Source of the DNA: an uncultured virus (IMG/VR IMGVR_UViG_2799112477_000001)
Taxonomy: Duplodnaviria > Heunggongvirae > Uroviricota > Caudoviricetes
Direction: 5' to 3' (one strand)
Virus record (IMG/VR): IMGVR_UViG_2799112477_000001
Length of the DNA stretch: 20,000 bases
How positions within the stretch are numbered: position 1 is the stretch's first letter; the number at the start of each line of letters is the position of its first letter. The notes beneath the pieces were generated by a model. That model had not been told where the DNA came from and made no database searches. It saw only the letters and a program-made list of their open reading frames with translations. Positions 2,546-19,161 of this stretch are shown here, in pieces. The position numbers and the translations under genes are program-made.

Positions 2546-3367
2546 TCAATTCGTTTTCCAGCTTGATCCTGTCACATAGTCTATGGATATCCCTGGCTCT
2601 ACGTTATAGCAGAAAACGTTGATATGAAACTTCGTTCCTCTGCTCTCTACGTCGCCTGCTTCGATATGTACGCCTCTACAGACCAGCTCGTTGCCTTTGA
2701 AGACAGGAGTTGCACGGTATAGGATCCTTCCGCCCTTTCTCAGGAGCCAGTTCTGCGTAGCTTTCTCCGCATAGGACAGCTGACCATCGACATTCATATA
2801 TTCAGTGCCTGTGACAAGGTTCCTCGGATCATCTGTAATCCCTGAGACCGCATACATTATGAGGTGGCAGCGGTTGTACAGCCATCCGCTGTTTCTGCTG
2901 ATTAGGTCAGGATATTGCGCCTGGTTCCAGCCTGAAGGAGTGACATGCGACAAGTCAAAGTCTCTTTCCCCTTCCGGTATCGTGTCTTTTCCAAGTGAAG
3001 CTTCACACGCACCGCATCTGCCGAGCCAGTCGAGCTCGGACAATTCTATATACATAGATTCTGCTTTCTTGTAATCCTCTTCCGTGAATTCCGGTTTGTT
3101 CCCGTTCAGGACATAGGTTGGTGTACCGGAGTATTCAGGGATAGAATCCAGAAGGCTGCTCTTTTCTGTCTGCATTGGAGCGGGTCTGTTTTCTGCCTGT
3201 TCAGCAGATTTGTCTATATCCTGTATGCTTCCGAACTCACCGGGAGGATCCACTATCACAGAGTGCTGTCGCATCGTATATATGCCCGCACCAATGACTA
3301 GCAGCATAATCAGCAGCATTCTTACTGTTCTGTATAATTTTTCTTTCTTGCTGTATGGATATTTCAT
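2546..3367 (-). CDS. membrane-anchored DNA/RNA non-specific endonuclease (EndA/DNA-entry nuclease-like, ββα-Me)
   Basis: N-terminal basic plus hydrophobic anchor; NRCHLI (DRGH-type) motif, NLVTGTxxMN, YRATPVF and YNVEPG, all typical of this family. Confidence 0.85.
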   Translation of the reverse strand: MKYPYSKKEKLYRTVRMLLIMLLVIGAGIYTMRQHSVIVDPPGEFGSIQDIDKSAEQAENRPAPMQTEKSSLLDSIPEYSGTPTYVLNGNKPEFTEEDYKKAESMYIELSELDWLGRCGACEASLGKDTIPEGERDFDLSHVTPSGWNQAQYPDLISRNSGWLYNRCHLIMYAVSGITDDPRNLVTGTEYMNVDGQLSYAEKATQNWLLRKGGRILYRATPVFKGNELVCRGVHIEAGDVESRGTKFHINVFCYNVEPGISIDYVTGSSWKTN

Positions 3368-3403
3368 CTATTTCTGTTCTGTTCGTCCATTTTGCCGCGC
3401 AGA

Positions 3404-3566
3404 ATCTACATATTATATATAGTAGAGATTTTTGTTTTGAGTCGGTAAATACTTCAGCACCGGCAGACCTTCCCGGAAGTAGAGATTTTGCGACAAGCAA
3501 CAAGCACAAGTACCTATCTACACCATGCGCATATATATGATATCCCTGCGCAGGCAAGTAGAGATT
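3404..3566 (-). CRISPR. atypical Cas12a mini-array 1: three handle units (3516-3566, 3447-3487 degenerate, 3404-3430)
   Basis: Minus-strand AATCTCTACT...GTAGAT handles (canonical Cas12a is AATTTCTACT...GTAGAT) with loops of 36 nt and 12 nt. The middle copy ends GTATTT but still pairs TACTTC/GAAGTA. The array begins 35 nt after the cas12a stop. First spacer region is AGGTACTTGTGCTTGTTGCTTGTCGCAA. Confidence 0.75.
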
Positions 3567-3600
3567 TTTAGCGGAAGCATGCTCTGCCGCGCTGTCAATG

Positions 3601-6600
3601 TTACTGTTCCTGTATATGCTGCAGCCAGTCGCTGCTTGATATAGACAGAGATACAGGTTTTGTCGTTTTGTCCCCTGCCCGTGCTGTCAGAGCTTCTTCT
3701 GACGCGCTCTTGATTCTATTGACTATCATCAGCCCCTTGCGGGCAATGTTGTATGCGCTATTATCGTCCTTTGGCGCTTCGAAGAAGCTTCCCGTGGCCA
3801 GATCCATGATTGGTGAAACGATATTTGATCCTGTGCGCATCTGTACGATGAGGCCAAAGAGCGCAAGAAGTTCTTCGTGGAAACTCTTATCGGTCATGCT
3901 GCACAGAGCTTCTCTGAGGTCCTCTGAGCTTTCATCGATACCGTGGTCGTTCAGAAGGCCTGTGATCGACTCCGTCAGATTGATAGGCTTATAGTTTATG
4001 CCTTTATCTCCTCTGACCGCACGGATCCGCTCTCCATGTGAGAAAACGCTCCATTTCATCCTGCAGCCATCGAGCTGCTTCAGCCTGTTCTCGCTTATAA
4101 AGTAGCTGTAGTCGAAGTCGAATCTGTACGCCCTGACCTCTTCGTCGTAAACGATCCTGTCAAAGGCGTGCCAGAAGGCTTTGGCTGCGGGGATGTTTGT
4201 GTATCTGGTATCAAACAGGTTCACAAATCCTGTATTCGAATCTATTTCTGTGATCTTCCACGGCGAAACGTAGAAGATAAAACCTGTCTGTTTTCCGATC
4301 TTGTCGAAGCTTTCGAACGGAGCTGTCAGCTGATAAGCTCTGTAGATCCCGCCCGGTTCATCCGGTTCAGCGGATTTGTTTACAAGCAGATTCAGCTTGC
4401 TTATAAGGCGTGCTTCAAGCTGCTGATATACAGCTTTTTCTATCTTCTGGCGCTGCTGTTTGAACCCGAGGCTCATATCCTCGATCGCTATTACTGCGTC
4501 GTATTTGAGCATAAGGTCGGCAAGGATGCGCACGACCTGCCCGATGTAGCCGTCTTTAAGCTGCTTTATGCCCTCTACTGATTCCCAGCTCTTTCTTTCA
4601 GCCATACGCTGGAGTTCTCTGCTTTCAAGGAGCTTCGCATAGTCGGTCTTCTTAGGCTTACTGCCGGAAGCCTGCTCTATGACGTTGAGAGATCTGTTCT
4701 CTAAAACATTTCCCTTTGGGTCAAGGACGCAGAGCTGGATGAGATTGTTTTCTCCCCTGCTCACACCGATGACATGTACGTTGTCTTCCTTCTTTATAGC
4801 GAGTCTCGCTTCGGTGTTGATAAAGCTGAAATTCGTTGCGGAAGCATTTATGGTGATCGGCACGTTGAGCTGAAATTTGTTTACCGTGAATCTGCGGTCC
4901 TTTACGATGTCATACTTAAGGACCTTGCTCCTCTTCGGATTCAGAGGGTTCTTTGCTGCTACTACATCGCCTGCCCTGTGGATCACGGCATCTTCCGGTT
5001 TTATGGATGCCTGTCTGAAGAAAAGTTCTGCTCCTCCGTTGAGTCTGCAGATCGGGGGCTCCCCGTTTCTAGGATCAAACAGTGCTCTCCAGTAAATAGT
5101 TGACAGGTCCGGTTTGCCGTATGCCTTGTTGCTGAAATCCCTGTGCCAGATTTCGAAGAGATAGAGCTGCCCGTTCTCTACAAGCTCGTTTACGACAGCT
5201 GTATCTATCGGTCTGTACTTTAGCGAATATCCTGCTGTTTCTACTTCACGGAAGAAGCATGAGATATCCTCGTAAGCAGCAGTTTCCGAGAATTTAAAGG
5301 AGAACATCTGCCATGCGTCCGTGACTGCGATACAGTCCTTGTAGAAGTCGATGAGCCTGTGGCAGTCTTCAAGGCTGAAGTCTTTTCCCTTCTTGAAGGT
5401 GCCACTCTTGTAAATGCGCATGATGTCTTCTGAAGGTTTGTAGTTTTCGATCCCCTTTCTGGAGAAGATAACGTGCGGAAGAGCTTTGTTGGCTCCGGTC
5501 AGCAGGTTGTACCTCATCTTCATATAGACATCGTCCGTTACTGCTTCAGGGACCTTTTTGAACAGGTTGCCCTGCCCTTTTGCAATGATCCCAAGATAGT
5601 ATTTGCCGTCTTTCAGAAGCAGCGTTCCGAGCTTTGCGCTTTCAACGCTTTCCGCCCAGCCGTCGAGGAGGAGGGAAGAACCGAAGTTGAGTTTGACCTT
5701 TTCAGTCGTATATATCTTGCCTGAAAGGTAGTTTCTGGTTTTGTTGTAGATGGAAGTAACAGCATTCAGCGCGTCCATCAGCGGCTCATAATCTGTGTAG
5801 AATGCGAGATCTTTGTCTCCCGTCCTGACGGAAAGGTTCTCTGTAGAGCGTCTGATGTTCAGGGCCGCGTCAAGGTATTCCTTTATAACGGCTTTTGCCT
5901 TGCTGCTGCTTTTGAGGCTTCTTGGCTCTGAGCCTCTCATCTGAAGGAATGCGAGGAGGTCTCTTCTTGCCAGATCGAAAGACATCTTGCAGAAGCCTGC
6001 CTCGCCCGTTATGTATGTCGACAGCTTCCCGTCTATTCCCGGAATGATATCCAGTTCTCCGATGCTGTAATACTCTTTCTTTCTCAGCGCTGTGTCTTTC
6101 TGCTTACGGTATGCTGCGGAACGGCGCCTCTTTTCGGTCACATCCTGTTCGAAATCGTATTTATCCCCGAGAAGATCTTTCATCTTACTCCAGGATCCGA
6201 GCATCTTATTCGATATGTCATTCAGAGCTTTTGTCCTGATGTATATTCCGTTAAGATCGTAGCCTCCTATGGAGCTTATGAGGGCCGTCATGCCTTCCGC
6301 TGCAGGCCTGAAGAGCTCATCCAGCGCGAGGAGCGCGTCTATTACCTCATCGTCTTCTCTGAACGCTTCAGGGATGAACGAGAGTGTCGTTCTGTCGCTC
6401 AGGATCTGCTTTTTCAGAGGTGTCAGCTTGGGAAGACGGTCTTCTTTGCTTTCAGCTGCCTGATTTGCCAGGTTGATGTATTCGTTCAGGCCTTTTATCT
6501 TAGTCCCGTCTTCTTTTGCAAAGCCGCCGATAAGCTGGTTGTATCTGTCTATGCCGCTCTGGGCCATTACCTTGCTGAAGCCTTCAACGGAGAAGGAGTC

Positions 6601-7254
6601 AGACATGCTGTCATCGCCAAGCAGTGCAGCTAGTTCTTTTTCAGCTGTCTTTATATTGTCCGGGAGAACTTCTGAGATCCTCGTGAATTTCCTGTGGTTA
6701 TCGAGGAAGATAGGCAGGTTGTCGTCTATGATCCTGCCGGCGACCGAACCACTCTTTCCGGAAGCGTCATATATGAGCCTCCTGTTATTGTGGTATCCGG
6801 TGAAGTAAGATGCGAATCCTTCAAAGCTGCTTATAGCTGCCATTGCTTCTGCGTCATTCTCATACATAGCAGGAAGAAGCTTGTCGAAGAGATCCGCCTT
6901 AAAGAGGTCGTTATAGCCTTTTGCGCCTGTGAGATCATTTGATATATTCTCAGTCATGCGCCTTGCGAGGTCATTCATTTCCTCTCTGGCCTCATCGCCC
7001 TTTTCCGGGTGGAAGTAGAGATCTGCATATGCGGTAAGATCGCTCCCGAGGGAAAAGCCATTAAGAGTATTTTCTATGTGGGTTTTGTGGAGCCCGTCTA
7101 TGAGCTTCTGGACTTTCTTCTTTTCCTCTGCCCGTCTTGTGTCCTCTTCTATGATCCCCCGCTCTTCGATGTATTCGAGGGTCTTCCCCTGCGGGATCAG
7201 GCCGAATCTAAGCGTTTTGCTGATCTTGTAAAGATTTGTGAAATTCTCGTACAT
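3601..7254 (-). CDS. cas12a: type V-A CRISPR effector Cas12a (Cpf1), predicted DNase-dead (RuvC-I Asp to Ser)
   Basis: N-terminal FTNLYKISKTLRFGLIPQGKTLE, KGLNEYINL, LKKQILSD, YNKTRNYL, GQLYLFEIWHRDFS, LNGGAELFFR, KDRRFT, KQTGFIFYV and AYNIARKG. RuvC-I reads GVSRGENNL (S832); E925 and D1163 are retained. Confidence 0.95.
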   Translation of the reverse strand: MYENFTNLYKISKTLRFGLIPQGKTLEYIEERGIIEEDTRRAEEKKKVQKLIDGLHKTHIENTLNGFSLGSDLTAYADLYFHPEKGDEAREEMNDLARRMTENISNDLTGAKGYNDLFKADLFDKLLPAMYENDAEAMAAISSFEGFASYFTGYHNNRRLIYDASGKSGSVAGRIIDDNLPIFLDNHRKFTRISEVLPDNIKTAEKELAALLGDDSMSDSFSVEGFSKVMAQSGIDRYNQLIGGFAKEDGTKIKGLNEYINLANQAAESKEDRLPKLTPLKKQILSDRTTLSFIPEAFREDDEVIDALLALDELFRPAAEGMTALISSIGGYDLNGIYIRTKALNDISNKMLGSWSKMKDLLGDKYDFEQDVTEKRRRSAAYRKQKDTALRKKEYYSIGELDIIPGIDGKLSTYITGEAGFCKMSFDLARRDLLAFLQMRGSEPRSLKSSSKAKAVIKEYLDAALNIRRSTENLSVRTGDKDLAFYTDYEPLMDALNAVTSIYNKTRNYLSGKIYTTEKVKLNFGSSLLLDGWAESVESAKLGTLLLKDGKYYLGIIAKGQGNLFKKVPEAVTDDVYMKMRYNLLTGANKALPHVIFSRKGIENYKPSEDIMRIYKSGTFKKGKDFSLEDCHRLIDFYKDCIAVTDAWQMFSFKFSETAAYEDISCFFREVETAGYSLKYRPIDTAVVNELVENGQLYLFEIWHRDFSNKAYGKPDLSTIYWRALFDPRNGEPPICRLNGGAELFFRQASIKPEDAVIHRAGDVVAAKNPLNPKRSKVLKYDIVKDRRFTVNKFQLNVPITINASATNFSFINTEARLAIKKEDNVHVIGVSRGENNLIQLCVLDPKGNVLENRSLNVIEQASGSKPKKTDYAKLLESRELQRMAERKSWESVEGIKQLKDGYIGQVVRILADLMLKYDAVIAIEDMSLGFKQQRQKIEKAVYQQLEARLISKLNLLVNKSAEPDEPGGIYRAYQLTAPFESFDKIGKQTGFIFYVSPWKITEIDSNTGFVNLFDTRYTNIPAAKAFWHAFDRIVYDEEVRAYRFDFDYSYFISENRLKQLDGCRMKWSVFSHGERIRAVRGDKGINYKPINLTESITGLLNDHGIDESSEDLREALCSMTDKSFHEELLALFGLIVQMRTGSNIVSPIMDLATGSFFEAPKDDNSAYNIARKGLMIVNRIKSASEEALTARAGDKTTKPVSLSISSSDWLQHIQEQ

Positions 7255-7279
7255 GGTGTGGCTGGTTCCTTTCGCTTAT

Positions 7280-7320
7280 AAAAAAGTGCGGTCCGTCTGT
7301 TCCGGGGCTCCGCACTTTTG
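7280..7320 (-). terminator. terminator-like hairpin in the cas12a 5' leader
   Basis: AAAAGTGCGG...CCGCACTTTTTT on the minus strand, about 25 nt upstream of the cas12a ATG. Confidence 0.55.
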
Positions 7321-7447
7321 TCTGTTTTTATTATTAAACGAAAGGAGCCGGGGGAAATGCCTAAAAATCGGTGACTGCATTTCCTCCGGCTTAACACCAT
7401 GAACACCATATCACAAAGAAAGGAATATGGTTCATGTTTCAATGAGT

Positions 7448-7476
7448 ATTATAGCAGTAGATAACGCAGATTGCCA
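7448..7476 (-). promoter_or_regulatory. extended -10 promoter upstream of the cas12a leader
   Basis: TGGCAA-N17-TATAAT with a TGn extension (TGCTATAAT). Confidence 0.65.
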
Positions 7477-7517
7477 CTTCTTTTTTGTGACGGTGCTGTT
7501 GCACTTAAGGTGATTGT

Positions 7518-9618: not shown

Positions 9619-12600
9619 CTACCTCCCCCCTGCTGCTATCCTTGCCGCTTCTTTGAATACCGCATCTGCCAGAACTGACATTATCGCATTGTACTTGGAC
9701 TCATCCTCAAACAGCGATTCATAAGTTTCCTGTGCTTCTACATAGCTGTTCTGAGCAGCCTCTCCGAATGCCTTCGGAAATATGCTCTGTCCAAAGATCT
9801 GCCTGTCTGAAGTGCTTGCAATCTTCATCAGCTTATCGTCAGCAGTGAATATAGGATACAGATTCGAAATGAGCACTTTATCGCCCTCTGTAAGCTGTCC
9901 GGCAAACTTCTCGTTGATTTTCTCGATTACTTCATCAAGGGGCTTCAGCGGGTCAAGGCCCATCGCGCTCTTGCTCTGAGGCGGCTCATATACACCCTTG
10001 CCATCCTCCAAAGATATTGAACCTTCGAAGGTCTTGTTGAGTTTGTAGTATTCAAGCTTGAGCTTGTTCTCGATATCTACCATCTTGACAGTCTCGACTG
10101 GGAGAAGCTTCAGAAGGTACGAGCAGAATACATATTCCTTATGAAGGTCCGCATCAAACATCCTGACTACCTGAGAAATGTATCCGTACCACCTTATAAG
10201 GCTCCTCAGCTGTCTTCTGAACTGATACCTGTCATCCGGATCCAGGGTATTATATCTGTCTGCCACTGGCTTAAGGATACTCGTCATCTTGCCCATAGAC
10301 CTGTCATCCTGTTTGCCAGGCTTGTAGTATTCATCAGCGAACTTCTCTATATCCGTATCATCATAAACCTTGAAATTTCGGAGTTCTCTCTGAGTCTGAT
10401 AGATCAGGTCAGCATTGACTTCCTGCTCAAGATATGTTTCCTGATAAAACGGGTTGAACGCTTCAGTGATATCATCTGCCGTATTGATGAAATCAATTAT
10501 AAGCGTATCATTCTTACCTGGACAGGTTCTGTTAAGCCTTGACAGAGTCTGTACAGCCTTTACGCCCTTGAGCTTCTTGTCCACGATCATCGTATGGAGG
10601 TAAGGCTCATCGAAGCCGGTCTGGAACTTTTCTGCTACGATAAGCATTCCGAAGTTATCATGGAACTCTTCCTTTGTCTGAGATTCGGAGATGGCAGAAC
10701 CGTCTCTGCGTTTGTTCAGCTTCGACTCTGTGTATTCATCACCGTTCTCCGGGACAGACCCTGAGAATGCAACAAGAACATCTACATCATCATAGCCATT
10801 CTTCTCGATATAATCCTTCACTGCGAAGTAATACTTTACAGCTGCAGGCCTCGAAGATGTAACGACCATCATCTTGCCCTTGCCGCCTATCTTGTGCCTT
10901 GTGACTTCTCTGAACGTTTCTACGATGATCGGTGTCTTCTGGCTGATATTATACGGATGCAGCTCCTCAAATTTTCTGATGACCTTTGCTGCCTTACTCG
11001 AAGGCACATCCGGGTTGTCTCTTGTAGTATTGGCTATCTTGAAGCAGGTATCGTAAGTCATGTAGTTCTGAAGGACATCAAGAATGAAGCCTTCTTCAAT
11101 TGCCTGCTTCATGCTGTAAATGTGGAATGGATGATATGATCCGTCAGGATACTCAGTTCCGAACATCTCAAGAGTCTTGTCCTTCGGTGTAGCCGTGAAG
11201 GCGAAGAATGACAGATTCTTATGCTTTCCGTGTGAGATGAGTTCCTGAATCAGTTTATTATCTGGATCGAACTTCTCTTCCTCGATTGCCTCATATTCCG
11301 CATATTCTCTCAGCGCTTCCTCTGTATCAGCAAGTGCCGTCTTGAGTTTCATAGCTGCGGAACCGGTCTGTGAAGAATGTGCTTCGTCTACAATGACAGC
11401 ATAATTTTTGCCATCGGCTTTATCTACTTCCTGATAGATGACTGGAAACTTCTGAAGCGTTGTAACGATGATCCTCTTTCCATCATTAATAGCGTTTTTG
11501 AGATCCTGTGAGGACTTACCCTCACCGATGGTCTCTACAGAGCCTATGGTGTGGTCAAAGCATGAAATAGTATTCTGCAGCTGTGCATCGAGGACAGTTC
11601 TGTCAGTTACTACAATTACACTCTTGAATATTGCATTATCGTCGATGTCGTGAAGTGACGCTAATCTGTAAGCGGTCCATGCTATGGAGTTCGACTTGCC
11701 CGAGCCTGCACTGTGCTGGATAAGGTAGTTATGCCCTGCTCCGTTAGCAGAAACGTCTGCGATGAGCTTTCTCACGCAGTCAAGCTGATGGAACCTCGGA
11801 AAAATGAGGTTCTGCTTCTTCACGACCTTCTCGTTGCCGTGTTTATCTACGGTTTTGTCTGTCTTCACTTCAAGGTGTATGAACTTTTTGATGACGTCCA
11901 TCATACTGTCTTTAGTAAAGACGTTCTCCCAAAGATACGCTGTAGGATATCCGTTTGGATTCGGAGGGTTGCCCGCTCCGCCGTCGTTACCGGCTCCGTT
12001 TGAGCCCTGATTGAACGGCAGGAAGTATGTGTCACCCTTAGCAAGTTTAGTTGTCATCCAAACTTCGGTCTGATCGACTGCAAAGTATCCGAGTATCCTC
12101 TTATTGAACTGGAAACATATCTCGGAAGGATCTCTGTCATACATCCACTGTCTTTTGCTGTTCTCTACATCCTGTCCTGTGTACTGGTTCTTCAGTTCGA
12201 ATGCGAATACCGGAATGCCATTTACAGCAAGCATCATGTCCACAGAGTTATTATTGACTGCTGAATAACGCCACTGTCTCACCACGTTTATGACATTGGC
12301 ATCATACAGCTTCTGTGCGGTCCTGTTTAAGCGCGATTCAGGCTTGAAATAGCAGACATGGAAAGTTATACCTCTGTGCTTGAAACCATGTCTCAGAACG
12401 GAAATAAGGCCATCTCTGTCGCTTGCATTATTGAAGGCGATACAGAACTTCTTTTCCGGATCGATCTTGTTCTGCATGACAAATCTTGCCCACTCCTTTG
12501 GCTGCGTAGCCTTGATGAAGTCGGTCAGTGTCTGCTTATACACTCCTAGCTTTGGATCATAGACGTCAGAAGTATTTGTATAACCGCCGTAATGCAGAAG

Positions 12601-12654
12601 TGATGACTCTATATCCTGCTCAAAGCGCTTCTCATTAGTCTGGTCTATTGCCAT
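9619..12654 (-). CDS. hsdR: type I restriction endonuclease subunit R
   Basis: D...NGIP...ELKN nuclease motif, Walker [34 protein letters not shown]. Confidence 0.95.
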
Positions 12655-14756
12655 CAGTTACCCTCTTTCTTTTTGTTATCTCTTGCACTGTATACGAAAT
12701 CACTACGATCAAGGCCATATCTATCAACCAGTGCGCGTATAATACACATAATAGTTGCCGCAGAGAACCCTGAACTTTCATAGATTTCGGAATCAGCCAC
12801 CTTCAAATTGCTGCCCCATGTCAGCTTGTAGTCATACGAAAACATCACTACACTGGACCATTCAAGAATATTCTCGTTACTTCTTGCCATGCTCTCTATC
12901 AGGCTAGGATCAAGCTCATAAAGCTTGTCTATGAAGATCCTGAGCATCTCTGCGAAGTTTGATGCCTTGATGCGTTCTCCCATAAATACGAAGTAGTTTG
13001 GTGCTTTATAAGTCGCATCCTCAGGATTTTCGCAGGTGTACTCTTTATATCTAGGATCAGCGAATGATACTACTTTCTCAGGCTTATCATATCTGAACAT
13101 GTCAAGAATCATCTTTGACAGTCTTTCTGCTCTTGCCTCGATCGTATCCTTGTTCCATGCTGTAAGACCTTTGACGTCTTTGTTCAGGATCACTACTTTA
13201 GTTCCCTTTTCATCAAGCATGTCAAGTTTCTGAAGGAACGGTCTGTCGCCCAGTTCACTGTTATGCCCGGTAAGAGTAAGGTTGCCCAGTGTATGCAGAT
13301 ATGTGTTTCTTACATTTTCATAGTCGGTCCCGAGCATATTCTGCCAGTTTGTAGACAGATTCTTATTCTGAGGCATAATGTGCTCGATAGTCAGATTATC
13401 TGTAAGTATTTGTTCCTTACTCTGATTTTCTATAGATGTGAGCAGGAATCTGCAAAGAGCATATTTGTGATAAAGGTCGTTCTTCTTCAGTGCTTCAAGG
13501 AATGTTAGATCTCGAGGCATCTCATCTCTGGAAGTCAACTGGGTCAGGAATGAAACTATCGAATCATAGTAATGTTCCTTGTTCTCCGGTACATTGAATA
13601 CTCTTGTATAGAGTGTCTTGTACAGTCCTCTTAATGAGTTCGAAGCGATTTCACACATGGTGCGGCGTACACTATATGAAACAAGAAGTCTTAAGGTCTT
13701 AACAAGCTCCTTCTCGCTTATGACCTCATTCAGGAAATCATCAAATACTCTATAAAGGAACAGGAATGCGGTTGTCTGATTCAGTGCCTGCAAGTTTCCG
13801 AGAAGGCTGTTGACCTCATCGCTGTATTTGCTGCTTCCATGCATAAATGAATGATACAGTTCTGCATAATGCAGAAGCTCCTGCAGCATGGTTTCGTTAT
13901 CGTATCCGCCGTCTTCATAGAGTCCCTTGAACTGGTCGTAGGCGTATTTCTCCTTCGCAAACTCATCGAGTTTCAGATTCAGATACGAGTAGAAGAATTC
14001 GTTTCGATAGTCTTTCTTGACAAGCTGCTCGATCTTGATCCAGTATTCTTCGAACAGTCTGTCCTGATCGACGTCAGTCATGAGAACGAAGTTCCGGATC
14101 TTGTCTGCAAGGCTGAGAGGAACACCTGTGGAATTGATTCTCTCAAATATTTCCTGAGCATTATCATCGGGACCGAGCTGAATTCTTGCGCAAGTAAGTC
14201 TGCCGATACCATTGAAAATATCCTTTATCCTGAGATCAGGGTCCTTCTCCATCGCTCTTTTTATGAGAGTGCAGAATAGCTCGTAGTTGTGCCAGATTCC
14301 GGATGATCTGTCAACCTCATCGAATTTATTGTCCATGATGAGCATAAGCTGCCTGTTATCTGACTTGACAGGCTTAAGTTTGAGCTTAGTTGCTTCTGTA
14401 ACATCGAAGGAGTCGTATTTGTCCTTATTGATAATAGTGTCTAGGATGGCTTCCTTATCGTATTTCTTATCTGCAAGATCAAGGAGCGCCTTCAGGAGCA
14501 GATAAATGGTCGTAAGTCTCTGCTGTCCGTCAATGATTACATATGACTGGATATTAAGACCGTTGTTCAATGGTGCGAAGACAACAGATCCACAGAAGTG
14601 CTGCTTATCCCTTTTGTAAGCATTGACGATATCCTCAAACAGTTTCTTGCAGTCGTCCTCTGACCACTCATAGTTACGCTGATATACAGGGATAGCGTAC
14701 TGCCTCTTATTAGGTTCGATGAAGTCGTTAATTATTCTTCCAGGAGCAATATCCAT
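12654..14756 (-). CDS. DUF262 + DUF1524 (HNH) protein, GmrSD/RloF-like modification-dependent nuclease
   Basis: [20 protein letters not shown] and IFERINSTG (DUF262); TIEHIMPQ...LGNLTL...N (HNH, DUF1524); extra C-terminal domain. Confidence 0.9.
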
Positions 14757-16021
14757 TAATTCGGTACCTCCTTCTTGCCTGTAAGATATTCGTATATGAG
14801 GGATTTTTTATATGACTCGAGTTCAGCAATAAGCTGCTCTTTCTTTTCTATGACCCTATCAATTTCAGAGCACTTATCATCCAAATAGCGAGATATTTCT
14901 GTTTGTTCCTCTTTATTCGGTATAAGCACAGGCATACTCTTAAGTAGCGGTTGCCCTAAACTTGCCCGAGTCACGATATTCATTTGTTTTGCAAGGAAAA
15001 TTCTATGGTGACTGCTTCGGAAATAATACTTTGAATATCCAATATCCAAAGTATTATTTATTGGCCGTAGTCTAATCAGAAATCCGGCAAACGTCGCATG
15101 AGGTATGGTTTCCTCACAAACACTAGAAAAACCTACTTCCTCTATAGTTTCAGATGTTCGTGTAAAGAAAATATCGCCTTTTTTGACTGAATACAGTGCT
15201 TGCTCTGCCTCACTCGACTGAATCAAACCACTTAATGCTTTCGGCAATGCAATATTTTTATAGACATCTCCATAACTTACAAAAGGAAAACCCTCTCCGA
15301 AATATTCCCCACCTTTACTAATTCCATTCTGCAATACTCCTATATGGCGCAATTTACAAACGTTCCATGATTCGGGAATATCACCTATCCACTCAATCCC
15401 GCTATCCTTCATCTCACGATTCGGGCGGATTCCTTTTGTAACCGCCTGAGTTATAACAGACTGCTTGAGTTTCTTGTATTCTTCGATGGATGCGCGGGTC
15501 TTTTCAATAACTGCATCTATACTGGAGCATTCTGTATTAAGGAACGATACGATGCGGGCCTGCTCTTTCTCAGATGGCCAAGCGATAACAAGTTTGTTCC
15601 ATAGCGATGCGGACCAAGTAGCAAGACTCACTGAATCAACAACAACTGAAGAAATACTCTGCTGTAAGCTATAACGCACAAACGCTCTGTTAATACTTGG
15701 TTTTATACATGCTCGAATAATATGGTCAGTATAACAAGCTGACTTCGAAGGTAGATATACATATGGTGTTCCGTTTCTTGACAAGAGCAAATCATTTTCG
15801 TTTGTATATTTCCAGTCAGGAAAGTCTTTATACTTCGTTCTTATTGGTTCAATACCGGCAGTGTAAAAAACAATATCGCTCTCATCGGAGGACCACAGTT
15901 CTTTGTCTATCCCCTCACCAGTATTCATTCCATTGTGTAAATACTTAAATCGGATTGTTCCCCAGTCATTTGGTATTTGTCCGATCCAGTCGACTCCACT
16001 CTTTTTCATTTCCCTCGCCAT
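14756..16021 (-). CDS. hsdS: type I R-M specificity subunit S
   Basis: Two TRDs with repeated conserved regions (EMKKSGVDWIGQIP / EMKDSGIEWIGDIP; EQARI / EQTEI; KQSVITQAVTKG / KKSLIYEYLTGK). Confidence 0.95.
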   Translation of the reverse strand: MAREMKKSGVDWIGQIPNDWGTIRFKYLHNGMNTGEGIDKELWSSDESDIVFYTAGIEPIRTKYKDFPDWKYTNENDLLLSRNGTPYVYLPSKSACYTDHIIRACIKPSINRAFVRYSLQQSISSVVVDSVSLATWSASLWNKLVIAWPSEKEQARIVSFLNTECSSIDAVIEKTRASIEEYKKLKQSVITQAVTKGIRPNREMKDSGIEWIGDIPESWNVCKLRHIGVLQNGISKGGEYFGEGFPFVSYGDVYKNIALPKALSGLIQSSEAEQALYSVKKGDIFFTRTSETIEEVGFSSVCEETIPHATFAGFLIRLRPINNTLDIGYSKYYFRSSHHRIFLAKQMNIVTRASLGQPLLKSMPVLIPNKEEQTEISRYLDDKCSEIDRVIEKKEQLIAELESYKKSLIYEYLTGKKEVPN

Positions 16022-16023
16022 TC

Positions 16024-17781
16024 TTACGCCTCCTTATGGAACAGAGACTGCAGGCTTTCAGAGATTTCTGACTCAAGGTCTGTAATTCTATCCATAATAT
16101 CCTCTACCGCTTCAGGGGCCTGGTACTCGTAGAAAAATCTCGTCATTGGGATTTCATAGCCGACCTTTGTTTTTGCCTTATCTACCCATGCATCTTGTGC
16201 ATATGGAAGGACTTCTCTTTTGAAATACTCGTCTATGTCTTCCTTCAGCGGCACATTTTCGGTATCTCTGAGACTTGAATCAGCGACTGGCTTACCTTTC
16301 TTAAGGACAATGACGCCATTTTCATCTCGCTGCGGTCTCTCTACAACGATTTTTCTGTAACCAAAGTCTTCGCCATCGAAGATCTTGCTTTCGCAGTAAA
16401 TTCCATCTTTATCACCATAGATCTTTCCATCCTGGAATTCGCCTACGGCTGTTACGATCAGATTCCTGCAATAATCAGTGATGTCGTTGCGTTTGTTTCC
16501 GATTGATTTGCGTCTCGGTTCACAGCAATGGGATGCATCAATAAGCTGAACCTTACCGGCTTTATATTCAGGTTTCGCCTTATCAATGACCCACACATAC
16601 GTACTGATACCTGTATTCATAAAAGCATCTGTGCTGAGCTGAATGATGCAATCAAGATAGTCGTTCTCTATAAGGAACTGCCTGATGTTAGACGGCCCGC
16701 TTCCGGCATCTCCGGAAAATAGAGGCGAACCATTCTGGATTATAGCCATCCTGCCGTCATCGGTAAGCTTGTTAACACCATTGAGTACGAAAAGCTGTTG
16801 CCCGTCTGATATCTTAGGCAGCCCCGGAGCAAATCTTCCCTTCTCTCCAAGCTTGTGCTCCGCTTCTACAGCCTTTTGTTCACGCTTCCAGTCAATGCCG
16901 AATGGAGGATTACTTATGATGTACTGGAAGTGGAATCCCTTAAATTTATCATCGGATAAGGTATCTCCGAATCTCATGTTCTCAGGATCCCCGCCACGTA
17001 TCAGAGTATCTGCTTTCGCAATAGCGTATGTAGACGGATTTATCTCCTGCCCGAAGGTTGTTACTACAGCATCCTTGTTAAGGGCCAGAATTCGCTCTGT
17101 CATGCACGAAAGCATCTGAGAGGTACCCATTGTCATATCATAGACTGTAACGTTCTCCTCACCAATATCCTTGTCTACAAGCAGCACATCTGTCATGAGG
17201 TATATTATGTCTCTGCTTGTGAAATGCGCTCCGGCCTGCTCATCGTAGCTTTCAGAGAATCTTCTGACCAGCTCCTCAAATATGTATCCGCAGTCAACAG
17301 CACTGACCTTGTCTGGTCCGAGATAGCCCTTAGCTGAATTGAATTCCTGTATTACAAGGTACAGAGTGTTGCTTTCCACCATCCTCTTGATGATATTGTC
17401 GAACTCAAACTTGGACAGGATGTCCTGCACGTTCGGTGAAAATCCTGCAACATAATCTCTGAAGTTCATCTCGATATTCTCAGGATCAGCAAGCAAAGAA
17501 TCAAATGTATACTTGCTTGTATTATAAAAGCTGTAGCCGGATGCTCTTGTGAGAAATCCGTCTATTACAGCCAGCTTCTGGACTTTCTTATACTGTTCCT
17601 GCACTTTTTCATGTGTCGGCAGCAAACAATCATGGAATCTCTTGATCACCGTCATCGGAAGAATAACCAGGCCGTACTCGTGAGGTTTGAACGGACCTGC
17701 AAGATGAGTGGCAACATTCCATATGACAGCTGCTTTTTCAGATATGTTTACTCCTACATTGGATACTTTATTCTCGCTCAT
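16024..17781 (-). CDS. hsdM: type I R-M N6-adenine methyltransferase subunit M
   Basis: AGAHFTSRD, motif I VYDMTMGTSQM, GQEIN, motif IV NPPF. Confidence 0.95.
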   Translation of the reverse strand: MSENKVSNVGVNISEKAAVIWNVATHLAGPFKPHEYGLVILPMTVIKRFHDCLLPTHEKVQEQYKKVQKLAVIDGFLTRASGYSFYNTSKYTFDSLLADPENIEMNFRDYVAGFSPNVQDILSKFEFDNIIKRMVESNTLYLVIQEFNSAKGYLGPDKVSAVDCGYIFEELVRRFSESYDEQAGAHFTSRDIIYLMTDVLLVDKDIGEENVTVYDMTMGTSQMLSCMTERILALNKDAVVTTFGQEINPSTYAIAKADTLIRGGDPENMRFGDTLSDDKFKGFHFQYIISNPPFGIDWKREQKAVEAEHKLGEKGRFAPGLPKISDGQQLFVLNGVNKLTDDGRMAIIQNGSPLFSGDAGSGPSNIRQFLIENDYLDCIIQLSTDAFMNTGISTYVWVIDKAKPEYKAGKVQLIDASHCCEPRRKSIGNKRNDITDYCRNLIVTAVGEFQDGKIYGDKDGIYCESKIFDGEDFGYRKIVVERPQRDENGVIVLKKGKPVADSSLRDTENVPLKEDIDEYFKREVLPYAQDAWVDKAKTKVGYEIPMTRFFYEYQAPEAVEDIMDRITDLESEISESLQSLFHKEA

Positions 17782-18897: not shown

Positions 18898-18942
18898 AAA
18901 AAAACAGCAGGGCGGACGATATGTCTTCCCTGCTGCTGTTTT
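18898..18942. terminator. bidirectional intrinsic terminator between the ydbC pair and mini-array 2
   Basis: Stem CAGCAGGG/CCCTGCTG with a T7 tail on the minus strand and a TTTT tail on the plus strand. Confidence 0.75.
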
Positions 18943-18997
18943 CCTGCACAAGATCTGAACCCCGATAACATCGTGTCAGACTTTTCATAGATGACGA

Positions 18998-19099
18998 ATC
19001 TACATTTTTCATATCTAGTAGAGATTTTGTTTCAGCGTTTCAGCAAGATTCTCAATGTCGGTAGCCGGGGATCATTTTATCTACGCTGTAGTAGAGATT
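18998..19099 (-). CRISPR. orphan Cas12a mini-array 2: two handle units (19079-19099, 18998-19026)
   Basis: TAATCTCTACTACAGCGTAGAT (near canonical, 6-nt loop) and AATCTCTACTAGATATGAAAAATGTAGAT (14-nt loop). The following sequences are AAAATGATCCCCGGCTACCGACATTG and TCGTCATCTATGAAAAGTCTGACACG. Confidence 0.75.
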
Positions 19100-19132
19100 A
19101 TCGTAGCGCACCACACTTCCATACTTGTCATT

Positions 19133-19161
19133 ATCTTAGCATGAGATAACCACATTGACAA
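19133..19161 (-). promoter_or_regulatory. promoter of mini-array 2
   Basis: TTGTCA-N17-TAAGAT with TGn extension, about 35 nt upstream of the first handle. Confidence 0.6.

Follow-up and report, generated by a model that had tools for sequence, protein, structure and literature searches.

A Cas12a from a clade with serine at the RuvC-I catalytic position, encoded beside atypical guide loci on a mobile element

The 20,000-nt stretch of DNA analysed here (the window) spans positions 142677-162676 of contig C42 in genome G000 and lies near the end of that 162,836-nt contig; the genome comprises 2.52 Mb in 59 contigs and is 85.6% complete. The window encodes a variant of the CRISPR effector Cas12a (protein P0001) in which Ser occupies the position of the first RuvC catalytic Asp, followed just past the stop codon by short units resembling CRISPR RNAs (crRNAs). 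The original prediction was of a nuclease-dead, RNase-competent Cas12a with guides of its own, domesticated by a mobile element as a programmable DNA binder. Judged from sequence, we lean towards the view that P0001 is a type V-A variant from an old, distinct clade, acting as a cleavage-free, crRNA-guided DNA binder in the service of a mobile element. The gene and the codon on which this view turns are as follows.

3601..7254, minus strand: gene for the Cas12a variant P0001, 1217 aa, with REC1, REC2, PI, RuvC and Nuc domains
4759..4761, minus strand: Ser832 codon AGC at the position of the RuvC-I catalytic Asp, unchanged in runs X9 and X12 and in the X19 RNA contig

Domain architecture and full-length similarity place P0001 in the Cas12a family. 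The 1217-aa reading frame is intact, as had been predicted, with zero internal stops, and Pfam matches above cut-off comprise REC1, cas_Cpf1_2nd, Cpf1_PI-like (the Cas12a PI-domain family, at residues 587-676), RuvC_1 and NUC. The PADLOC Cas12a model scores the protein at 1233 bits. Solved LbCas12a chains match residues 3-1215 (E 6e-246) at about 40% full-length identity, and a better match than LbCas12a is the ReChb construct 8qwd (E 9e-288). P0001 does not belong with Cas12a2, Cas12a3 or Cas12a4: its RuvC-I motif is substituted, its PI domain matches the Cas12a family and its best matches are Cas12a proper. The accessible text on those relatives gives them intact RuvC motifs, a region that recognises the protospacer-flanking sequence, a zinc ribbon and clades distinct from Cas12a (PMC12851939).

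The RuvC-I motif of P0001, HVIGVSRGENNL (IGVSRGE), places Ser at residue 832, as claimed from the AGC codon, and Glu925, Asp1163 and Arg1140 are retained; the D-E-D triad of a canonical type V-A DNA nuclease is thus incomplete at its first position. The first RuvC Asp is a metal ligand. The D832A variant of LbCas12a is reportedly DNase-dead, and the residue lost in P0001 is the one mutated in engineered dCas12a (dLbCas12a D832A). Metagenome contigs L083 and L084 have the same Ser codon, as do two more DNA runs and a metatranscriptome contig spanning this position. Because the codon recurs across independent contigs and runs, a sequencing error, which the original prediction had thought unlikely, can be excluded. 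The RNase triad of the WED domain, His759, Lys768 and Lys785, is present and aligns with near-invariant columns of canonical Cas12a (His in 104/104, Lys in 102/104 and Lys in 104/104 sequences).

Of 7999 candidates scored in the homologue search, 1434 proteins passed E <= 0.001, and the best 120 were used. The 14 closest among the matches listed (P0002-P0015) all read VIGVSRGE, at 98% identity to P0001 for the nearest and 51-56% over the full length for the others. Across 118 sequences of at least 1100 aa, residue 832 is Ser in 14, Asp in 104 and nothing else, a Ser count that takes in P0001 and leaves out the truncated P0007; in alignment A1, with P0007 counted, Ser is found in 15 of 30 sequences. 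The Ser-bearing proteins form a monophyletic clade (the Ser clade) in a midpoint-rooted FastTree phylogeny (support 1.0, stem 0.60, <=1.41 substitutions per site between members), and all are full length except one that ends at a contig edge. Between P0001 and its copy in L083, the ratio of non-synonymous to synonymous substitution rates (dN/dS) is 0.28 (25 of the differences are synonymous, 26 non-synonymous). The homologue comparison that the original prediction proposed as a check thus supports RuvC-I loss as the mark of a conserved monophyletic clade under purifying selection, and the opposite outcome, in which the closest homologues all carry Asp and selection is relaxed here, is contradicted by Ser in 14/14 members and by the dN/dS value. 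As read from these sequences, the Asp-to-Ser change is ancient and clade-wide, and the proposal that this element itself altered its Cas12a does not hold. The WED triad is conserved along with the Ser: His759 in 13/14 members and Lys768 and Lys785 in 14/14 each.

None of the protein sources listed for the clade is NCBI, and no member was found in species-representative genomes (a scan in which the window's own genome may not have been included), IMG/VR or PLSDB. The genome-contig scan yielded 190 relatives, of which 80 loci were used, all at <=43% identity, the viral-contig scan one relative at 35%, and the plasmid scan two records at 24%; 6 of 200 family genomes have a Cas12a match, at 34-41% identity. 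The metagenome scan gave at least two contigs at 98% identity, L083 and L084. The stretch itself occurs in gut metagenomes, mostly ruminant, from 11 studies, some of which may be the source of the assembly.

Loss of the RuvC triad extends beyond the Ser clade. An exhaustive search of representatives at 50% identity, in which the whole Ser clade collapses to one representative, gave 1330 matches. Among the best 150, 141 are at least 900 aa long, and 24 of these have a substituted triad, mostly at RuvC-I (N, K, H, T, S or A). Together with five added Ser-clade sequences they fall into 14 maximal all-substituted clades, by which count RuvC-triad loss appears to recur in at least 14 Cas12a lineages. 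The 29 substituted sequences keep the RNase His in 29/29, the first Lys in 27/29 with Arg in the other two, and the second Lys in 28/29. All 29 also keep Glu925; its retention whatever else is lost suggests a structural role. Around the Ser clade lies a wider one (support 0.976) in which every triad is degenerate; its six further representatives read DEY, SES, NET, KED, TED and SES at the triad, the pattern that would be expected of drift after catalysis was lost. True catalytic loss is favoured by these varied triads together with the retention of Glu925 regardless.

Among the fetched loci, 5 of 169 have a residue other than Asp at RuvC-I: L083 and L084 (Ser), L140 (Lys), and L155 and L156 (Asn). 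The L140 gene (10001-14959) is followed immediately by an 18-unit array of heterogeneous repeats with mostly 7-nt loops; a type IV secretion coupling protein and a resolvase are encoded upstream, and no cas1, cas2 or cas4 was found in the 10 kb upstream. L155 (39-3704) and L156 (2505-6257) also have Gln at the Nuc Arg position and a single solitary handle unit after the gene, near genes for TnpB, helix-turn-helix (HTH), GNAT, DUF3849 and UvrD-like proteins. This one-guide arrangement recalls dedicated RNA-guided regulators. These few and partly related cases agree with the window in that guides are kept, adaptation genes are absent and the neighbours are those of mobile genetic elements. A homologue search from P0188 found no closer relatives of that lineage beyond P0171.

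Further changes specific to the Ser clade surround the RuvC and Nuc sites. Arg836, present in 104/104 canonical sequences, is Asn, Lys or Ser in the clade; two deletions, one of 6 and one of 9 aa, leave the stretch from Arg1140 to Asp1163 15 aa shorter than its counterpart in the 15 canonical A1 homologues; the surroundings of the QMRNS and DADANG motifs are degenerate; and residue 1037 is Asp specifically in the clade and Asn in 96/104 canonical sequences.

The lysines that contact the TTTV protospacer-adjacent motif (PAM) in LbCas12a, Lys538 and Lys595, are both missing from P0001. The Lys538 column is Lys in 100/104 canonical sequences and Val (10), Thr (2), Arg (1) or Gln (1) in the Ser clade (Val537 in P0001); the Lys595 column is Lys (86) or Arg (9) in the 104 canonical sequences and His in 13/14 clade members (His594 in P0001). 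The pocket around these lysines is more uniform inside the clade than among canonical Cas12a proteins, with Gly532, Trp533, Glu535, Ser536 and Glu538 in 14/14 members, Lys541 in 13/14 and Val537 in 10/14. Given this uniformity the PAM pocket looks remodelled, not abandoned, and a conserved altered pocket argues for a functioning DNA-recognition surface. In AsCas12a, the accessible part of an engineering study reports that K548V, the equivalent of Lb Lys538, shifts the PAM to TATV and is the top single change at a TATC site, and that the RVR variant also alters the Lb Tyr542 position (bioRxiv 10.1101/091611), which is Lys in the Ser-clade protein. Since the PAM-reading lysines are replaced, the rules for target choice probably differ from TTTV, and the PAM is probably another one.

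Four guide loci were located on the element: a mini-array beside cas12a, a second mini-array, a solitary unit and, about 50 kb away, a canonical array interrupted by an insertion sequence (IS). The two mini-arrays lie in the window.

3516..3569, minus strand: crRNA-like unit 1, made up of AAAAUCUCUACU, a 35-nt loop (nested hairpin) and GUAGAU
3490..3515, minus strand: spacer of unit 1, 26 nt, target search negative
3478..3489, minus strand: 5' half-unit (AAAAUCUCUACU), the scar of a 47-nt deletion between repeats
3404..3433, minus strand: crRNA-like unit with an 11-nt A/U loop, 44 nt after the half-unit
18998..19098, minus strand: second mini-array with two handle units, their loops 5 nt and 13 nt long, and guide-like stretches of 50 nt and about 60 nt
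19133..19161, minus strand: promoter-like TTGTCA-17-TG-TAAGAT upstream of the second mini-array
18898..18935, minus strand: inverted repeat CAGCAGGG/CCCTGCTG with T7 after it, a terminator-like end to the second mini-array (read by eye)

Guides of its own had been predicted for this Cas12a. Units are indeed present at 3404-3569 on the minus strand, in an atypical form (a 35-nt loop, an 11-nt loop and a half-unit), and the further loci had gone unnoticed. The mini-array beside cas12a, on the minus strand just past the stop codon, repeats only the last ~22 nt of the Cas12a repeat. The 47-nt deletion removed a canonical unit with a 4-nt loop and a 26-nt spacer, both of which L083/L084 and runs X9 and X12 retain. 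The 36-nt 'spacer' (3368-3403) of the 11-nt-loop unit reaches the ATG of the downstream endonuclease gene. A TATAAT occurs within the 11-nt loop of this unit (3404-3433, in 3368-3433 on the minus strand), and the promoter or 5' untranslated region of the endonuclease gene may coincide with the unit or have replaced it. At the second mini-array, the stretch 18898-19161 (minus strand) has the layout of the CreR/Cracr RNAs, with a handle-only pseudo-repeat, a guide and a terminator in a separate transcription unit; the loop of its terminator-like repeat is longer than 8, so that the terminator scan missed it. Outside the window, the solitary unit has a 24-nt loop (C42:91976-92014) and lies ~150 nt ahead of a topoisomerase gene. 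The canonical array follows directly past that gene on the same strand (C42:94460-95894), with four repeats of 35-36 nt and spacers of 29-31 nt. An IS630-like element with a DDE_3 transposase and an HTH open reading frame (ORF) splits its second repeat (C42:94553-95752; L172:11877-13076), with CTAG on both sides.

Whole 'ATCTCTACT..GTAGAT' units number eight in the genome, all on contig C42, with loops of 4, 4, 4, 5, 11, 13, 24 and 35 nt. The pattern AATCTCTACT-N(3-33)-GTAGAT, which is unable to match the 35-nt-loop unit, has seven matches in this genome and one each in 4 of 200 family genomes; a control with the reversed pattern gave six. The units, those of the 36-nt-repeat array included, have the UCUACU-loop-GUAGAU handle of systems that need no trans-activating crRNA (tracrRNA), with one base different: the Ser-clade handle, AAUCUCUACU, is distinct from the canonical AAUUUCUACU and starts with AATC (AAUC in RNA), against AATT in 110 and AATG in one of 111 related loci with at least two units. 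The 2025 units of 105 canonical arrays comprise 1834 with a 3-nt loop, 190 with a 4-nt loop and one with a loop of another size, and handle loops of 5-35 nt are therefore essentially absent from them. Every unit has the handle stem in its minimum-energy fold, with nested hairpins in the long loops; the fold z-scores are not significant.

Searches for targets of these guides were negative. Nine guides compared with their own genome (blastn-short) matched only themselves, and 9-nt PAM-proximal seeds occurred genome-wide at chance frequency, a lone TTTG with an 11-nt match on contig C57 being as expected for 10 guides. In the region upstream of cas12a, no guide matched at 12 or more of its first 16 nt, nor did this region, the only cas promoter region compared, show the ~9-11-nt PAM-proximal complementarity known from CreR/Cracr. 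Three guide-locus stretches had no match in phage and plasmid collections, one hit at E = 0.7 being treated as chance, and exact 24-mers of three array spacers had zero matches in IMG/VR. The handle pattern itself, 16 bases with a variable gap, has at least 113 single matches in IMG/VR, a number consistent with chance; one solitary 4-nt-loop unit there (L180) is indistinguishable from chance.

The carrier of cas12a is a large integrative or plasmid-like mobile element. From ~83 kb to its end, contig C42 encodes tyrosine and serine recombinases (integrases), a DDE transposase, IS elements, TnpB, three RRXRR (IscB-like) proteins, a type IA topoisomerase, a PcfJ-like protein, DUF3846 and many small unknown ORFs. 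L083 is collinear with C42:133.9-162.7 kb at 95-99% identity, and L083/L084 are without the type I restriction-modification (R-M)/GmrSD island and the tRNA block of the window; the element is thus mobile-element-like, with cargo that varies between near-identical copies. A phage origin was rejected, as no phage structural family occurs among 66 ORFs. Neither the window, as predicted, nor the 2.52 Mb, 85.6% complete genome as a whole yielded a cas1, cas2 or cas4 family match; as a control, cas1 lies within 1.6 kb in 9 of 16 canonical loci with full flanks. The cas4-cas1-cas2 set of a canonical type V-A locus was thus not found here.

The remaining features of the window are listed below.

7255..7477, minus strand: promoter-like GTGGCA-18-TG-TATAAT (7477-7448) and a 191-nt structured leader before cas12a
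2546..3367, minus strand: neighbouring gene for a DNA/RNA non-specific endonuclease (Endonuclea_NS_2) with an N-terminal hydrophobic anchor
9619..17781, minus strand: type I R-M genes (HsdR, HsdS, HsdM), variable cargo absent from the 98-99% identical L083/L084
19317..20000, plus strand: serine recombinase (resolvase N-terminal domain), running past the end of the window

The cas12a leader folds more stably than shuffled sequence (minimum free energy -65.8 against -41.0 +/- 4.2; z -5.86; 0 of 200 shuffles as low) and has zero Rfam family matches. Of its three hairpins the last precedes a T-run, and the ribosome-binding region pairs with CUCCUUUCG lying upstream; an attenuator or sensor is possible. 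Of the 30 bins, 19 and 18 have metatranscriptome contigs over the ORF; since carried-over DNA could account for them, they do no more than hint at expression. The RNA contigs leave the guide loci uncovered, an uninformative result because short RNAs do not assemble. The endonuclease was considered as a nuclease partner acting in trans and rejected, probably rightly, for its N-terminal hydrophobic anchor. The R-M genes, too, were rejected as partners of Cas12a, being absent from L083; a 700-aa GmrSD-type gene (PADLOC Orf5/HEC-06 models) is inserted between hsdS and hsdR. Four tRNA-like genes were called by ARAGORN at 33-484 and 2050-2124 on the minus strand (Leu-TAG, one with a 4-base anticodon loop, Gln-CTG and one undetermined), of which two, the only Rfam hits, reach the tRNA gathering score; the block is missing from near-identical L083/L084 and is therefore element cargo. 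Elsewhere on C42, apart from cas12a, lie the three RRXRR proteins of 449-487 aa and one TnpB (83939-85288, 86416-87879, 107818-109167 and 90282-91409). Several RNA-guided protein families thus reside together on one element, and an association of Cas12 with IscB is reported in the accessible text of Altae-Tran et al. (PMC10910872). A 1823-aa ORF (C42:97686-103157) has no Pfam or PHROG match.

A working model for P0001 as a cleavage-free binder can be outlined. The protein would bind the Cas12a-type 5' handle, probably cut its own pre-crRNAs through the WED RNase site, and take up guides encoded at several loci of its own element. It would then recognise double-stranded DNA beside a PAM unlike TTTV, form an R-loop and remain bound, blocking transcription or replication of the target. 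The canonical 29-31-nt spacers would point to foreign targets, for example competing plasmids or phages, and the handle-only mini-arrays, bounded by promoter and terminator, would resemble regulatory crRNA-like RNAs.

Several observations weigh against this model. The 98%-identical copy in L083/L084 (10001-13654) has Arg at the RNase His759, so that the RNase competence claimed in the original prediction is something we infer from the retained triad, not a given; that copy nonetheless carries a fuller, three-unit mini-array. Handle loops of 11-35 nt might block loading, and none of the guides has yielded a target in the host genome, the element, the phage and plasmid collections or IMG/VR. Midpoint rooting means that the nesting of the Ser clade cannot be read from the FastTree phylogeny, and the genomic context of the clade is that read from the window element and L083/L084. 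The persistence of Glu925 and Asp1163, which the original prediction had already seen in P0001 and which are invariant in the clade (14/14, with Arg1140 in 13/14), could mean residual or altered catalysis. In addition, canonical Cas12a has 284 positions with at least 95% conservation, of which the Ser clade has lost 49 of 130 in RuvC/BH/Nuc and 52 of 154 in REC/WED/PI (odds ratio 1.19, Fisher test p 0.53). With loss no commoner in RuvC/BH/Nuc than in REC/WED/PI, a domain-level relaxation of RuvC/Nuc is rejected, and wholesale decay of the nuclease lobe with it. This result leaves room for residual or altered activity; it fits equally a lobe needed for R-loop formation and folding.

A nuclease with residual or altered activity (nicking, cleavage of single-stranded DNA or RNA, or use of another metal), in which Ser832 is tolerated or compensated and targets are still destroyed, is in our judgement unlikely. 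The retained Glu925, Asp1163 and Arg1140, a RuvC/Nuc region conserved as much as the rest of the protein and the clade-specific Asp1037 would all suit such an enzyme. The metal-ligand role of the first RuvC Asp and the reported D832A phenotype speak against it, as do the degeneration at Arg836 and around QMRNS and DADANG and the loss of RuvC-III or the Nuc Arg in sister lineages. The shifted substrates of the Cas12a2/a3/a4 relatives offer a precedent in the accessible text (PMC12851939), but those proteins keep all RuvC motifs and the Ser clade does not. Rather less likely is an anti-CRISPR decoy that soaks up host type V-A crRNAs or shields protospacers of the element, with mini-arrays that silence a host cas12a promoter in the manner of Cracr/CreR. 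A RuvC-inactive phage Cas9 has been proposed as a decoy (PMC10910872, in the accessible text), and V-A crRNA-like RNAs of phages and plasmids, each a single handle with a short guide and a terminator, are repressors of cas12a according to the part available of bioRxiv 10.1101/2024.10.29.618823; the unit at 18898-19161 fits their layout, and canonical Cas12a does occur in 6 of the 200 family genomes. Yet the 85.6% complete host genome has no other cas12a, the AATC handle departs from the AATT of 110/111 loci and the AATG of the remaining one, no guide seed matches upstream of cas12a, and the element also holds a canonical array with ordinary 29-31-nt spacers.

It is slightly more doubtful again that P0001 is an RNA-processing or RNA-binding factor, cutting or binding handle units ahead of the endonuclease and topoisomerase genes and so controlling their mRNAs. 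One unit does end 36 nt ahead of the endonuclease ATG, the solitary unit precedes the topoisomerase start by ~150 nt with the canonical array directly after that gene on the same strand, and the RNase triad is conserved; but only two of the four guide loci precede a gene, the L083 copy has H759R, and the REC and PI domains and the remodelled PAM pocket, needless for RNA work alone, are conserved in the clade. A decaying pseudogene, or a Ser created by assembly error, is extremely improbable and already refuted: the substitution itself and the IS insertion in a distant array are all that would point to it, against an intact ORF, a codon shared by independent assemblies and runs, and Ser in 14/14 members across <=1.41 substitutions per site with a dN/dS of 0.28. 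We thus retain the cleavage-free binder as the reading towards which the evidence tilts.

Set beside known systems, the P0001 system has in common with LbCas12a and canonical type V-A the domain order, the tracr-less UCUACU-loop-GUAGAU hairpin and the WED RNase triad. It differs from them in its Ser RuvC-I, the loss of Arg836, the replaced PAM lysines, AAUC in place of AAUU, the 15-aa shorter Nuc/RuvC-III linker, loops of up to 35 nt and the absence of cas4-cas1-cas2. In its mode of action it would resemble the type V effectors that bind without cleaving. According to the accessible text of the 2025 classification, Cas12m (V-M), Cas12c (V-C) and the inactivated V-B protein Cas12b3, the last on a conjugative plasmid with a mini-array, interfere, or are expected to, through binding that leaves the target uncut (PMC12669027). 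These belong to other Cas12 families, and the homology of P0001 is to Cas12a proper. TldR and Cas12k are described, in the sources as available, as RuvC-inactivated TnpB/Cas12 relatives that serve as RNA-guided binders; TldR is a small TnpB-derived repressor with an omega-RNA and Cas12k recruits a transposon with a tracrRNA, and P0001 shares only the RuvC fold with them. CreR/Cracr RNAs have a similar ~20-nt handle part, guide-like stretch and terminator, in units that are sometimes stacked (bioRxiv 10.1101/2024.10.29.618823, accessible part), but they use the active host Cas12a and short complementarity to the cas12a promoter, whereas here the effector is RuvC-substituted and its own promoter region unmatched.

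The accessible portion of the 2025 classification covers V-C, V-M, V-O, V-P, Cas12b3 and transposon-borne subtypes, and no inactivated V-A variant appears in it (PMC12669027). The nearest description, in the available text on Cas12a 'group 1' of Roizmanbacteria from the candidate phyla radiation, is of a RuvC-II Glu replaced by Asn in proteins that may not cleave (PMC6509639); that case differs in the residue (RuvC-II), in lineage and in its loci, which have a second Cas12a, and the text available holds no analysis of mobile elements or guides. Beyond this note, we found no description of an inactivated V-A variant in the literature accessible to us, subscription journals and supplements aside.

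Cas12a is among the most used and studied CRISPR effectors, and its dead forms have been engineered at exactly this residue. Possibly, though we lean slightly the other way, type V-A contains an unrecognised, recurrent class of DNase-dead Cas12a on conjugative or integrative elements, of which the Ser clade, as a programmable repressor, would be the most elaborated, with a PAM pocket mimicking the engineered K538V, a handle of its own, tolerance of long loops and dispersed guide loci; it would serve in contests among mobile elements or regulate genes of the element that carries it. The 24 of 141 triad-substituted representatives near the query suggest that many database entries named Cas12a are not nucleases. 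If the cleavage-free reading of P0001 is true, the protein would provide a natural dCas12a scaffold shaped by selection for binding, probably with a different PAM, and its handles would offer natural evidence that the loop takes insertions of 5-35 nt, of use in guide engineering. Type V-A would then join the type V lineages turned binders (V-C, V-K, V-M and V-B3), again on mobile elements.

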